Source of the DNA: an uncultured delta proteobacterium
GTDB taxonomy: Bacteria > Desulfobacterota > Binatia > UBA9968
DNA: 64,000 nucleotides
Reading direction: 5' to 3'
NCBI GenBank assembly: GCA_963745835.1
Contig: CAVUZH010000003.1
Span: 736,001 to 800,000, forward strand
The translations under genes and the position numbers were made by a program. Under the pieces are notes generated by a model. That model was not told the DNA's origin. It searched no databases and worked only from the letters and a program-made list of their open reading frames with translations. Below, piece after piece: positions 15,007-26,634 of the stretch (positions are counted from its first letter, which is position 1; each line of letters opens with the position of its first letter).

Positions 15007-17320
15007 ATGACAACTGAACACAACAGCGATGGTTTGATCGGCGCTTCGATTCGACGGGTAGAAGATCCTCTGCTGATTAGCGGCAAAGGTTGTTACGTCG
15101 ACGACATCAACCTGCCGGGCATGTTGCACATGATGGTGCTGCGCAGCGCCTATCCCCATGCAAAGATAGTTTCGATTGATACCGACACGGCGAGATCCAT
15201 GAAAGGGGTCGTCGCCGTGGTAACCGGACCGGAACTGCCGGAACGCTTGAACATCAATGCTCAGGTGATGTTTCCGGGTCAGAAGATTCCGCCGCATCCG
15301 GTGCTGGCGCGCGGTGCCGTGCACGCTCCGGGGACGCCGGTCGCTGCGGTGGTCGCCGAAAGTCGCGCGATTGCTCAGGACGCGTGCAATGCCATCGAAG
15401 TGGAATACCAAGCCTTGCCATCGATACAGAACGCCGAAGATGCGCTCAGGCCAGGCGCGCCTCTCGCTCGTGAAGAGTTGGACAGCAATATCTGTTACAC
15501 GGCGGTGAAAAAAGGCGGCGATGTCGATAAGGCGTTTGCCCAAGCAGAGCATATCGTTCGCATGCACATCGTCAGCCCGCGACAGGTTGCTCTGGCCATC
15601 GAGCCGCGCGGCGTCGCAGCCAATCCTGATCCGATGGGCAAGAGCCTGACAGTCTGGCTTTCCACCCAAGGCCCGCACCGGGCGCGCGCCGATCTCGCTA
15701 GTACCCTCGGCATTCCGGAAAACAAAATCCGCTTGATCGCGCCCGATGTGGGCGGTGGATTCGGCAGCAAAGGGCCGCTTTATCGCGAAGACGTTTTGAC
15801 TAGTTACCTGGCGCTAAAGTTGCGCCGTCCGGTCAAATGGGTGGCCACCCGCAGCGATGATTTTGTCACGACGATTCAGGGCCGCGACCAGGCGATGACG
15901 TCCGAGTTGGCGCTCAAGAAAGACGGCACGATGTTGGGACTTGAAGGTTCGCGTGGTCGCCAATCTCGGTGGCTATCTGCAATCGAGCACGGCCGGGCCG
16001 CCGCAGCGGATGATGGCGATGGCGCCGGGCTGTTATCAGATTAGAGACTGCCATGTCGAAGTCGTCGGTGTGTTTACCAACACGGTTCCGACCGGTCCAT
16101 ATCGTGGCGCCGGCCGGCCCGAGTCGGTGTTGAACATCGAGCGGCTGATCGACAAGGCGGCCAAGGATCTCGGCATTGATCGGCTGGAAATCCGCCGGAA
16201 AAATTTTATTCGACCCGAACAGTTTCCCTATAAGACGGCAGTCGGCATGGAGTACGACTCGGGCGATTATTTCAAATCGCTCGACGAGGCAATCAAAATT
16301 TCCAACTACAAAGATCTCCTGCGCCAGCGCGATGAGCGGCGCGCGCGCGGCGAAATCGTCGGCGTCGGCGTTTCTACTTTTGTCGAACCCAGCGGCGGCG
16401 CCGGCTTTGAAAGCGGCACGGTGCGCGTCGAGCGTACCGGCGAGATCACCGTGCTTACGGGATCGAGCTCCCACGGCCAAGGACACGAAACGGTATGGGC
16501 ACAAATTGCCGCGGAAATGTTAAAAACGGATATGGAGCACGTAACCGTGCTGCACGGCGACACCTACGTATCGCAGCAGGGCACCGGAACATTTGGCAGC
16601 CGCAGCGCGGTGGTGGGCGGTGGCGCTTTAGCGACCGCGGCCCAGCGTGTGATAGAAAAGGCCAAGCGCATCGCCGCCCATCTGGTTGAAGCATCTGCCG
16701 AAGACGTGGTTCAGGCTGACGGCGGATTTTCCGTCGCCGGTGTTCCCGAAAAGAAAGTCACCTGGCGCCAGATCGCCGCGGCGGCCTATAGCGGGAAAAT
16801 TCCGCCGGGCATGGAGAACGGTCTCCAGGAAACCTGCTTTTTTGATCCCAGGCGTGAGGCGTGGGGCTATGGCGCCCATGTTTGTGTGGTCAGCATCAAC
16901 CGCGAAACCGGCGAGCCCAAGATCGAGAAACTCGTGCTTGTCGATGATTGCGGCGTGCTGATTAATCCGATGATCGTCGAAGGACAGATTCACGGAGGCG
17001 TGGCGCAGGGACTCGGTGAAGCGCTGCGCGAGCAAATGGTCTACAGCGAAGACGGCCAAGTGCTCACCGGCACATTGATGAATTATGCGGTTATGCGCGC
17101 TACCGATATGCCGCCGCTAACCCTCGGCGAAACCGTCACGCCCAATCCGTTTCACCCGTTAGGCGTCAAGGGAGTCGGTGAAGCCGGCACCAACGGCGCG
17201 CCGCCGGCGGTGGCCAATGCGGTGATGGATGCGCTGGCGCCGCTAGGCATCGATCATATCGATATGCCTTACACTGCGCCAAAGCTCTGGCAAGCGATTC
17301 GCCACGCGGGTGGAACTTAA
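15007..17320 (+). CDS. coxL: CoxL-like (form II / xanthine dehydrogenase family) molybdopterin large subunit, apparent 1-nt insertion near 15940
   Basis: ORFs 15007-16044 and 15941-17320 join (MLG|LKVRVVANLG) on removing one base; span 2314 = 3n+1; GGGFGSKG, PYRGAGRPE, HGQGHET, GTFGSRS, GVKGVGEAG. Confidence 0.88.
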
Positions 17321-23373: not shown

Positions 23374-23625
23374 ATGACGTTCGAACAGGTACTACAGTGG
23401 TGTCGTGACAATGGAGCCGATGCCAGAGGAATCTACCGGGCAAGGGACTTCTGGATCCGCCGCTCCGATCGTCTGCCCGATGATTTGCCGGCAATCGGCG
23501 CGCTCTTTCATTGGGATGTGCGGTTGAGCGAAACGCAATTAGCCGTCAGCCCGTCCGATATGGAGCGCATGGTGAACGGTAAGATGACTCTCGAACAATT
23601 CAAAGCCACTCACCGTCGCGGTTGA
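23374..23625 (+). CDS. Hypothetical protein
   Basis: RBS GGAGG, operon position, followed by a terminator; no motif recognised. Confidence 0.6.
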   Translation: MTFEQVLQWCRDNGADARGIYRARDFWIRRSDRLPDDLPAIGALFHWDVRLSETQLAVSPSDMERMVNGKMTLEQFKATHRRG

Positions 23626-23666
23626 TTCTCTCAGCTAGCCAACAAGACACGGTGAGCAATTCACAT

Positions 23667-23698
23667 AAAGCCGCAGCAAGATCCTGCTGCGGCTTTTT
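23667..23698 (+). terminator. Rho-independent terminator
   Basis: AAAGCCGCAGCA-agatcc-TGCTGCGGCTTT perfect 12-bp stem ending in a T run. Confidence 0.8.
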
Positions 23699-23816
23699 AC
23701 TTGAGCTCACGAGAGTGCGGCGACAGATTGGCTCGATTGGAGCCAGAGGTGGATGACTGAAGAGCAAGCGCAACTATCGTCATCTTTGGATATACTTTCA
23801 GTCTGCCTTCATCGCG

Positions 23817-23846
23817 TTGACACCTCCGCGGTGCGCACAATACAGT
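23817..23846 (+). promoter_or_regulatory. Possible sigma70 promoter of the grdE/grdB-like pair
   Basis: TTGACA-N18-TACAGT, 28 nt upstream of ATG 23875, downstream of the terminator. Confidence 0.4.
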
Positions 23847-23874: not shown

Positions 23875-25157
23875 ATGGAGCTAACCCTCGCGATTCATCC
23901 GATCACGGCAATTCGCTTCGGTCATTCGACCGGCTTGGACGGAACCTTGCTGGATGTCGCTGCCGAACAGTTGCAAGCACTGCTCCTTGAAGACCAAACC
24001 TTGACCGCGGTGGATTTAGAGATCGCTTGTCCTGGAGAGAGCTGCAGGGCCGGTCCGGTTTTCGATATCATCGAACCGCGTGCCAAGGCCCCGGATTCGA
24101 GTCCTGATTTTCCCGGTATTCTTGGACCGCCGCATACGGCAGGGTTCGGTACAACCCACGTGCTCGAGGGCGCCGCGGTAACAGTGCTGAGGGAAAAATC
24201 TGCCGGAGACTCGCGCGGCGCCATCGGCTATGTCTTGGAGATGAGCGGAGAACCGGCGGCAGGATCCAAGTACAGCTCGTTGCAACATCTGATTATCACG
24301 CCGCATACTCAGCCGGCTCTGGCCGATCATGCCCGGCAAAAAGCCTATCGGCTGGCCGGACTCAAGGCCGCTGTGTATCTCGCGCGCGCTGGATTCGATC
24401 ATGTGCCTAGGTCACGCGCGACGTTTGGGAGTGTCGATCCATCCGCTACAGCACGCGACGGAGTGCCCCGCCTCGCCTATGTCGGACAGATATTTTCGCG
24501 TCAGAGAAAGCCGGTGCTGGACGAGCAGATTCTTTACGGTCTCGGTACCGATGGCATGCTGCCGGTCACACTTCACCCCGACGAATGGCTCGACGGCGCA
24601 GTAGTGCCGTCGTATCACACCTCTCTCGGCGGTGCGGAGACCTATTTCTATCAGAACCATCCGGTCATCACCGAGCTTTACCGGCGCCATGATCAAGGCG
24701 AGCTTAATTTCGTCGGCACGGTGGCAACGATTGCATCGGCTGACAACTTTGATCGCGAGCGCAATTGCCGGTTCGCTGCAAACCTCGTGCGAACGGTTTT
24801 AAAAGCAGATGCGGCGGTACTGACCAAATTTGGCGGCGGCGTTCCTCATACGGATCTATCGGAAACGGCACGTTTGCTGGAAGGAATGGGCATCAAAACC
24901 GCCGTGCAGGTCACCGATCTGGCGCGCGACCGCAGGGTGGAGTCGGCGCTGCTGTTTAATTTTCCGGAAGTCAACGCGATCGTGTGCATCGGCGGCAACA
25001 GCACGCGCTGGAAGGTGCCGCGTGCCGAGCGGGTCATCGCCGCATCACCGGAGTTGAAGGAAGCTGCTCGGCGGAGATCTTGGAACTGGAATCGCTGAAC
25101 GTCGTCGGCATCGCCAATCAGCAGGGAGGATCGCGGCTCCGTGCAATGGTTTATTAA
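23875..25157 (+). CDS. grdE: Glycine/sarcosine/betaine reductase component B alpha/beta subunit (GrdE/GrdG/GrdI-like), apparent frameshift near 25060-25080
   Basis: PGESCRAGPVFDIIEPRAK, FPG, GTTHVLEG, RLAGLKAAVYLA, LHPDEWLDGAVV, TYFYQNHPVITELY; a family-like C-terminus LELESLNVVGIANQQGGSRLRAMVY* lies in another frame ending TAA 25155-25157. Confidence 0.82.
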
Positions 25158-25303
25158 CAGGCTGGTGAAAAAGCCTCATATGCTTCGTTGCGCTTGCTCG
25201 ACTCGCTTCAACGTACTGAAGCGTACGCCTCAGCTCATCGAGCTTCGCGGGCCTTGCCTCTGAGTCTTTTTGACCAGCTGTGATCAGGGTTTTTCAGAGA
25301 CTG
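25158..25303. mobile_element. MITE/REP-like palindromic element inserted between grdE-like and grdB-like genes
   Basis: Terminal inverted repeats CAGGCTGGTGAAAAAG (25158-25173) / CTTTTTGACCAGCTG (25266-25280), a second degenerate right end GTTTTTCAGAGACTG (25289-25303), internal stems GCTCGA/TCGAGC and CGTAC/GTACG; no coding capacity. Confidence 0.65.
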
Positions 25304-25350
25304 GTACCTATTGGACGTTTTGAACTGACTTGCTTAACAGGAGACCAAGG

Positions 25351-26634
25351 ATGCGAATCGTACATTACCTAAATCAATTCTTCGCGGGAGTCGGCGGTGA
25401 AGAGAAGGCCGGCATGCCGCTCGAAACTCGGGAAGGCGCCGTCGGCCCCGGAAAACTATTCGCACAGCAGATTGGCGGCGACGCAAAGGTGGTGCTGACT
25501 CTGGTATGCGGCGACAATTACGCGGTCGAGAACCAGGATCAGATGATCGCGGTCGCTGTTCAGAAAATTCGCGAAGCCGACGCCGATCTGTTAATCGCCG
25601 GGCCGTGCTTCCAAGCAGGCCGCTACGGCATGGCCGCGGGCGCGCTCTGTTCCGCGGTACAGTCGCAGTTGAACATTCCTGTGCTAGCAGCGATGAGCGA
25701 AGAAAATCCCGGCACCGATCTTTATAGAGAGCTGATGTACATCGTCGACTCGGGCTCCAACGCGGCCAAAATGCGCGAGGCTGTACGAAAGATGGCCGCT
25801 CTGTCACGCAAACTGATCGATAATCAGCCGATTGGCTTGCCCAAAGAGGAAAACTATTTCTCCCGGGGCTTGATTCGAGACCGATTTGTCGAGAAGACGG
25901 CGGGCCAGCGGCTAGTCGATATGGTTCTAGCGAAAGTCAAAGGGGAGGCTTTCGAATCGGAAATGGCGCCGACGACATTTACGCCTGTGCCCATGCCGCC
26001 CGGAGTTAAAGATCTTAAGCGCGCAAAGTTGCTACTGATTACCGACGGTGGGTTAGTCCCCAAGGGCAATCCGGACAGTATCCAAGGCTCGGCTGCTACC
26101 CGCTGGGGATCGTATAAAATCGACGGTTGTGACGATCTCAAAGGCGAAGATTACGAGATATCGCACGGCGGCTACGATCCGCAGTTTGTCTGCCAGGACC
26201 CGGATCGTCTCGTCCCGCTTGATGTCATGCGCGAGCTGGAAAAATCCGGCGCCATCGGCGAGCTGTACGAAGAATTTCTTTCGACTTCGGGTTTGTCCAA
26301 TCCGCTGTCGAATACGCGGCGCATGGGGCGTGAGATGGCCGATAAGGCGAAGCGGCTCGGCATCGATGCGGTGATATTAACCTCGACTTGAGGCACGAGC
26401 ACTCGCAGCGGTGCTGCGATCACCACCGAGTTGGAAAAGGCTGGAATTCCAACCGTGCAGATCACTTCGGCGATGCCGATTGCCAAGATGGTAGGCTCCA
26501 ATCGGCTGGTGCTAGGAAACGGTATCGTCCACGTAGTCGGGGATGCCAAGCTTTCTGCCGAGCAAGAAAAGGAAGTGCGCCGGCAACTGGTTCAAAAGGC
26601 ACTCAACGCGCTCGAGGCAGACAAACCAGAATAA
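25351..26634 (+). CDS. grdB: Selenoprotein: glycine/sarcosine/betaine reductase component B selenocysteine subunit (GrdB/GrdF/GrdH-like), 427 aa, Sec at codon 347
   Basis: MRIVHYLNQFFAGVGGEEKA, CGDNY, AGPCFQAGRYG, GGLVPKGNPD, HGGYD, DPDRLVPLD; in-frame TGA 26389-26391 in VILTST-U-GTSTRSGA continues in frame into track ORF 26431-26634 (EKAGIPTV...VGSNR...GIVHVVGD). Confidence 0.9.
26403..26419 (+). promoter_or_regulatory. Putative bacterial SECIS element
   Basis: Perfect stem TCGCAGC / GCTGCGA with GGT apical loop beginning 18 nt after the UGA, fitting the general bacterial SECIS pattern (G-containing apical loop shortly 3' of UGA). Confidence 0.72.

Follow-up and report, generated by a model that had tools for sequence, protein, structure and literature searches.

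A selenocysteine-encoding grdE-grdB-like gene pair of the Binatia as a probable protein B of a glycine-reductase-type system in which no GrdD was found

The window analysed here is a 64-kb stretch of DNA (contig C3, positions 736001-800000) from the genome of an uncultured Binatia bacterium (G000; 7.28 Mb in 25 contigs, 97.1% complete and 9.3% contaminated). It contains a grdE-like gene followed by a grdB-like gene with an in-frame TGA, which, as judged from sequence comparison, is a real and conserved gene pair coding for selenocysteine (Sec). We suggest that the pair probably encodes a protein B, the substrate-specific component in glycine-reductase-type systems, and that it is served by a shared, GrdD-less A/C module encoded elsewhere in the genome. 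This reading is based on the conservation of the genes, on Sec coding, and on co-occurrence with grdA and grdC, not with grdD. Comparisons were carried out with 41 genomes of the same order (the relatives), with a wider set of 201 genomes of the class, and with 80 GTDB loci carrying a grdB-like gene of the same motif type (UxxSxxS).

The grdB-like open reading frame (ORF) has a single in-frame TGA, at codon 347, and its product matches PF07355 (440 bits, cut-off 22) and TIGR01918 (469 bits, cut-off 65) over its full length. The TGA is present in every one of the 80 loci. The ratio of nonsynonymous to synonymous substitutions (dN/dS) 3' of it, computed for five pairs, is similar to that of the 5' part. 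Conservation of at least 90% was reached at only 4 of the 119 four-fold degenerate sites, and all 4 are in codons 352-356. These codons fold into a hairpin, 15 bases 3' of the UGA, that resembles a selenocysteine insertion sequence (SECIS). In a Cys-bearing paralogue (locus L104), the letters of this stem are exchanged on both sides. The genome encodes the Sec machinery, with selA, selB and selD above cut-offs on contig C22 and a tRNA-Sec on contig C13. Taken together, these observations indicate that the UGA is a selenocysteine codon. The two cysteines of the UxxCxxC motif, which are found in all six reference proteins, are both replaced by serine in all 80 loci, always with an AGY codon, one base away from the TGY codons of Cys.

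Further signs of Sec use were seen in the same genome. The selD gene (C22:69235-70161) carries an in-frame TGA of its own, and a short PrdB-like gene without a GrdE-like neighbour (C13:879209-880030) has one in a U-x-x-C motif and is a probable further selenoprotein. A 258-base contig of RNA run X15 that lies on grdB has 12 differences; it stems from a relative and possibly from DNA, and was not accepted as evidence of expression.

The ORF that begins the pair matches PF09338 (E 4e-74), and an alpha subunit lies directly upstream of the B gene in 76 of the 80 loci; the remaining four start 255 bases or less from a contig end. No cysteine is aligned with the pyruvoyl cleavage site of the window protein. 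The pyruvoyl segment is likewise devoid of Cys in 62 of the 64 orthologues parsed, two having Cys one position off (5 of the 69 orthologues in the set were unparsed). The original prediction, made from the letters of the window, had proposed a GrdB-like gene with UGA read-through and the loss of hallmark cysteines from both subunits, and the comparisons agree with it on both counts. An [FY]-S-R-Q-R insert is found in 68 of 69 orthologues and K-[FY]-G-G-G in 67 of 69, at a position where all six references read E-E-G-[YF]-G. Predicted folds reached a predicted local distance difference test (pLDDT) score of 73 for B and 68 for E, with the putative active-site loops of E below 50. Foldseek searches with both folds returned generic alpha/beta matches only (template modelling score ~0.2), a wide structural search gave none, and a sequence search of solved structures with B and E had no match at E<0.1.

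With translation table 11 the grdE-like ORF is 407 amino acids (aa) long and stops at 25098, and the conserved C-terminus is encoded in a different frame that extends to 25157. Runs X1 and X7, from two studies, each have one contig in which a base at 25063 and a base at 25080 are missing. When two bases are subtracted from the 1283 nt, 426 codons and a stop result; 55 of 69 orthologues have 426 aa, and the frame is intact in the same genus. Because comparable single-base indels break two other genes, those for CoxL (window) and PlsX (contig C24), and because contigs of two studies are free of the extra bases, the frameshift is very likely an assembly error. A pseudogene was considered as its cause and is unlikely in view of these contigs and the intact orthologues. 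The window copy might also be a decaying duplicate with a real grdE frameshift, the work being done by a 68%-identical paralogue pair 85 kb upstream (C3:673743-676337; C3:672053-676337 with an adjoining DUF255 gene). The frameshift in the assembly, a repeat inserted in the spacer and the paralogue itself would fit such decay, and the X1 contig differs at 10 other positions in 242 bases and thus represents a near strain rather than the source strain. However, the indels in CoxL and PlsX fit assembly noise, dN/dS of the B gene is below 0.1, orthologues in the genus are intact, and three relatives (G004, G005, G023) also keep two copies of the pair. Decay of the window copy is therefore regarded as extremely improbable.

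Queries for GrdA, GrdC, GrdD, TrxA and TrxB gave no match in the window at E<=0.01 (PrdA had no query of its own), in keeping with the initial view that the 64 kb hold none of these genes. On the same contig, ~430 kb away, there is a grdA with one TGA (C3:1192467-1192907) and a grdC (515 bits, cut-off 450), in a cluster that also holds a third GrdB-like gene and three GrdE-like genes. The CxxU motif of GrdA is present in 32 of 32 rows. Homologues of thioredoxin and thioredoxin reductase are encoded by the genome as well, with five strong TrxB-like and three TrxA-like matches. GrdB matches occur in 33 of the 41 relatives; grdA and grdC are found together in 31 of these 33 genomes, compared with one of the eight GrdB-negative ones. 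In five relatives (G010, G018, G019, G029 and the single-contig G025) the UxxSxxS clade supplies the only full-length GrdB, yet grdA and grdC are kept. At 4 of the 80 loci, one of them a Dehalococcoidia-labelled record, grdC and grdA adjoin the pair in grdC-grdA-grdE-grdB runs.

Since the partner genes are on the same contig and are kept across relatives, the pair does not appear to stand alone, and the orphan enzyme of the original prediction has to be given up in that form: components A and C and thioredoxin are present, while grdD is missing and the pair is not nested in the reference reductases. A stand-alone selenoenzyme resembling D-proline reductase, in which E/B would be re-reduced directly by a dithiol (perhaps of a DUF255 protein) with no need of GrdA and GrdC, was set aside as the leading explanation after the genome searches for grdA and grdC. 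It has a precedent in PrdA/PrdB (PMC11229817), and neither grdA nor grdC is seen in the DNA retrieved for 76 of the 80 loci, many of which are short contigs; the pair also has its own conserved promoter candidate, and two GrdB-positive genomes have no A and C matches. Retention of A and C in the five genomes just named, and their adjacency to the pair in four loci, argue against it, as do the loss of both resolving cysteines and the full GrdB length of the 427-aa B protein, which reaches only 84 bits with the PrdB model (cut-off 300). We consider a stand-alone enzyme unlikely.

A protein B that shares components A and C is compatible with one relative (G022) in which 20 full-length, TGA-bearing GrdB paralogues are accompanied by two grdA genes and one grdC. 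This genome is 99% complete with 9% contamination. Genes for solute-binding proteins alternate with several grdE-grdB pairs at locus L112. The motifs of the paralogues vary (UxxCxxS, UxxSxxC, UxxSxxS). The order has three distinct sequence types of GrdA/GrdC (L001, L039-L069), and two of these are found in the genus of the source genome. This suggests that the hub module was replaced while the B clade stayed. In the source genome the grdE-grdB-grdE-grdC-grdA cluster is interrupted by a transposase-like element (C3:1197671-1199089) that is not there in G006 (L110).

A possible replacement for the lost CxxC dithiol is a DUF255 thioredoxin-domain protein of ~500 aa with an invariant WCxxC. Its gene is present at 40 of the 80 loci and also adjoins the paralogue pair of the source genome. 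Its orthologue was found in 24 of 33 GrdB-positive and 0 of 8 GrdB-negative genomes, and an ordinary longer DUF255 protein occurs in both groups.

No match to the grdD model was above cut-off in the 41 relatives, including five single-contig genomes that hold grdA and grdC (G025, G026, G028, G037, G038). At E<=1e-20, grdD was found in 0 of the 201 genomes of the class, while grdC was found in 21, and it was not found either in any of five carriers with records naming Chloroflexota, Nitrospinota or Acidimicrobiales. The same model matched three of three control records. In the source genome only PlsX matches it, and the six frames contain no GrdD C-terminal cysteine motif. A gene family that might substitute for GrdD near grdC or grdA did not recur across 21 grdA loci beyond small kin groups. 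In canonical GrdD the acetyl thioester is carried on a C-terminal cysteine. Elsewhere GrdC and GrdD normally work together, as natural GrdC-GrdD fusions among 50%-identity representatives show (P0128, P0130, P0136, P0140, P0184, P0236). All 46 GrdC rows have Cys260, and this residue is aligned with the catalytic cysteine of FabH (best E 7.7e-5). A further feature of the GrdC alignment is a histidine in 43 of 43 rows from the order, where three of three references have glutamine. A phosphotransacetylase-type gene had no match in the source genome with the single query used.

A total of 106 B proteins were placed in a quick maximum-likelihood tree (midpoint root, PrdB not included), which was evaluated with the Shimodaira-Hasegawa-like approximate likelihood ratio test (SH-aLRT) only. 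In it, 88 rows including the window protein form one clade (SH-aLRT 98) apart from six reference rows. Two of these are annotated as GrdF and one as GrdH; the other three carry no annotation and were classed as glycine or betaine type from their grouping and context. The window B protein stays below the equivalog cut-offs for GrdB (429 of 602 bits), GrdF (481 of 800) and GrdH (438 of 775), and the GrdE-like protein, scored in its frameshifted 407-aa form, below those for GrdG (189 of 780) and FarE (137 of 675). The pair falls into none of the clades tested (glycine, sarcosine and betaine) and probably acts on another substrate, as had been supposed from the window alone.

Two assignments to known substrates were weighed. 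As a divergent glycine-betaine or sulfonium reductase, the enzyme would keep its alpha subunit uncleaved like GrdI and yield trimethylamine and a C2 unit. GrdI is indeed described as unprocessed in PMC10838667, close homologues are often named 'betaine reductase' in databases, and an NMT1-type binding protein adjoins the pair, with a weak OpuAC match below cut-off. Against this, the GrdH score is far from its cut-off, the window B falls outside the two-row betaine-type clade, the acidic motif of GrdI is replaced, and no BCCT or other betaine transporter is among the recurrent neighbour families identified; a betaine reductase seems distinctly unlikely. A haloacetate reductase detoxifying fluoro- or chloroacetate, like FarBE, would match both cysteine losses, as FarB is without CxxC and FarE without the processing cysteines (PMC10838667). 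Such losses may nevertheless be convergent; the score with the FarE model is lower than that with the GrdG model, and neither a radical-SAM gene nor an oxalate/formate-antiporter gene is among the recurrent neighbour families identified. This assignment is considered very unlikely.

For a protein B working with shared A and C, a mechanism can be outlined from the chemistry of the family, in which attack by Sec gives a carboxymethyl-selenoether, protein C forms an acetyl thioester, and electrons come from thioredoxin (PMC10298544 and PMC3091704). By analogy, the U347 selenolate would attack the CH2 of X-CH2-COO-, release X and form the selenoether; the carboxymethyl group would pass to the Sec of GrdA, protein C would convert it to the acetyl thioester, and thioredoxin would re-reduce GrdA. 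Without a pyruvoyl cysteine no Schiff base would be needed, so that the substrate would be neither glycine nor sarcosine. The basic S-R-Q-R insert and K-[FY]-G-G-G in place of E-E-G-[YF]-G hint weakly at an anionic or neutral leaving group, such as that of a thioether dicarboxylate, haloacetate, sulfoacetate or aminopolycarboxylate, rather than a betaine cation; this is a tentative assignment. With GrdD gone, the acetyl group would most likely be carried by the FabH-type cysteine of GrdC and be handed to CoA or released as acetate, acetyl-CoA being quite possibly the product. The DUF255 protein might act as dithiol partner in place of the lost CxxC. For an aerobe, such a system might serve to scavenge carbon or to detoxify, and not for substrate-level ATP synthesis.

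Several observations weigh against this reading or parts of it. GrdC Cys260 is equally invariant in three GrdD-bearing references and is thus not specific to GrdD loss. The histidine in place of glutamine was rejected as a marker of that loss, since it also occurs in two GrdC-GrdD fusions (the motif is shown by 50 of 150 representatives). Acetate kinase and PlsX are present in the source genome, and acetyl phosphate may therefore be formed by an enzyme other than GrdD. The charge argument about the leaving group has no structural support from the poorly modelled loops of GrdE. Two genomes with GrdB have no grdA or grdC match (G001 and G032, 84% and 95% complete), the window copy has no DUF255 gene beside it, and FarB was omitted from the tree. 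Finally, the relatives are kin and not independent, and the co-occurrence counts thus overstate significance.

The features of the region are collected in Table 1. Upstream of the pair, a terminator followed by a possible promoter had been proposed. The terminator is supported by its T run and by the fold of 23661-23705 (-21.7 kcal/mol), although the scan that was also used for promoters did not list the hairpin at 23670-23699. The promoter scan found one promoter-like site where 1.9 were expected, although TTGACA and a similar downstream hexamer precede the pair in all eight of the closest orthologues printed; they are not clearly seen in three more distant ones. The dispersed repeat in the spacer has 95 genome matches of at least 90 bp and a fold of -48 kcal/mol; just 2 of the 69 orthologous loci have it in this spacer. 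Other copies were noted at C3:1194625-1194750 and in the selA/selB region of C22. Copies often separate genes that belong to a single operon, and by metagenome contig depth the repeat is common in soil relatives.

Table 1. Features of the grdE-grdB-like region (positions within the window)
Feature	Position	Strand	Evidence or remark
Terminator-like hairpin closing the upstream cupin unit	23670..23699	+	9-bp stem, 6-nt loop, T run
Sigma-70-type promoter candidate of the grdE-grdB pair	23817..23846	+	10/12 matches; not above chance
grdE-like gene, putative protein B alpha subunit, frameshifted in the assembly	23875..25157	+	PF09338, alignments; 426 aa in orthologues
Two single extra bases shifting the grdE-like frame, probable assembly error	25063..25080	+	Contigs of runs X1, X7
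Palindromic dispersed repeat (~125 bp) in the grdE-grdB spacer	25158..25283	.	Not part of the enzyme system
Sec-grdB-like gene	25351..26634	+	427 aa, motif S-T-U-G-T-S-T-R-S (UxxSxxS); profile matches and alignments
UGA read as selenocysteine (U347)	26389..26391	+	TGA in 80/80 loci; post-codon dN/dS 0.03-0.09 in 5 pairs
SECIS-like hairpin, 6-bp stem and 3-nt loop, codons 352-356	26404..26418	+	Frozen four-fold sites; alignment

The window also encodes a cupin, a dienelactone hydrolase, TctA/B/C, amidohydrolases and a molybdopterin oxidoreductase, which bears out the oxygenase, hydrolase and TTT-transporter surroundings first described. The genome has five COX1-family matches (haem-copper oxidases), consistent with the earlier assumption of a probably aerobic host. 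Metagenome runs sharing at least half of the window's words come from soil, rhizosphere and winery, where the source is named, and the closest named loci are labelled Candidatus Binatia and unclassified Deltaproteobacteria. The gene for the CoxL-type molybdopterin subunit (window 15007-17320) is split by a frameshift near 15941-15945, and a genome of the same genus has an intact version of 772 aa. An 83-aa ORF located 3' of the cupin gene (window 23374-23625) has no Pfam or NCBIfam match and is kept at the same position in G007. Neighbouring families (CDO-like cupin, CmcJ/NvfI oxidoreductase, amidohydrolase, dienelactone hydrolase, Rieske oxygenase, CoxSML) occur at 9-13 of 80 loci each. They were discarded as a clue to the substrate, being restricted to related genomes and indicating no single compound. 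A cysteine-dioxygenase-like (CDO-like) cupin (L232:6629-7267) and a CmcJ/NvfI oxidoreductase (L169:5239-6072) are repeatedly found next to a sister subclade of the pair, in 10 and 11 of 80 loci, respectively; a thiol product would suit these neighbours, but the loci are kin.

At its widest, the proposal would be that aerobic soil Binatia possess an oxygen-tolerant catabolic platform remodelled from glycine reductase, in which up to 20 Cys-poor Sec B modules per genome each take carboxymethyl groups from a C-S, C-N, C-O or C-halogen substrate of their own, one GrdA collects them, FabH-like GrdC alone gives acetyl-CoA without GrdD or acetyl phosphate, and the DUF255 protein is the dithiol of the UxxSxxS clade. 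This combination is speculative and somewhat doubtful as a whole. If true, it would represent new C2-assimilation chemistry, provide a first function for a DUF255 subfamily, and reassign acetyl-thioester formation to another subunit within protein C. PMC10298544 locates the thioester on protein C and calls the activation step unresolved; the conversion of carboxymethyl-selenoether to acetyl thioester is thus the unsettled step that a GrdD-less system would probe. Glycine-reductase chemistry has been described as anaerobic and bound to acetyl phosphate, and a GrdD-less form in oxidase-bearing soil bacteria would be a natural experiment. Should the substrates be haloacetates, thioether acids or aminopolycarboxylates, a reductive degradation route would exist in abundant soil lineages whose genes are now annotated plainly as glycine or betaine reductase. 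In the literature searched, with most subscription journals and supplements outside it, no published work on the UxxSxxS clade or on GrdD loss was found. Preprint 10.1101/2022.07.06.499078 treats GrdB as functional only in anaerobic settings, and PMC9321204 notes grdH homologues in ocean proteobacteria.

Among known systems, the pair resembles the reference reductases GrdF/GrdG of Peptoclostridium acidaminophilum DSM 3953 and GrdH with its alpha subunit of Enterococcus gilvus in having a two-subunit B, the order alpha-then-Sec-beta and an S-T-U-G motif, at identities of 40-46% (B) and 30-32% (E). P. acidaminophilum also has B modules away from its C genes. In contrast to these references, the pair has the UxxSxxS motif, no Cys in the pyruvoyl segment, a replaced EEG motif and a separate clade; grdD was not found, the loci have no trx genes, and the host has haem-copper oxidases. 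PrdA/PrdB belong to the same Sec superfamily and set a precedent for catalysis independent of A and C. However, PrdB has ~240 aa compared with 427 for the window B, and PrdA requires a pyruvoyl group made from cysteine (PMC11229817). The FabH (KAS III) acetyl-cysteine transacylases have their catalytic cysteine aligned with GrdC Cys260, in alignments of only ~50-90 positions, and the same cysteine is found in canonical GrdC. The closest parallel in layout is Cloacibacillus porcorum, in which eight grdB genes feed a common A and C. FarB/FarE of its strain MFA1 likewise have neither CxxC nor processing Cys, are one of several B paralogues, and lie apart from the grdA/grdC proposed as partners. 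According to PMC10838667, on which these statements draw, the far host is an anaerobe that conserves energy through acetyl phosphate; the window pair differs in this respect, in its neighbours and in scoring far below the FarE cut-off. The shared-A/C layout and the cysteine losses are thus not new in kind, being known from FarBE (PMC10838667).

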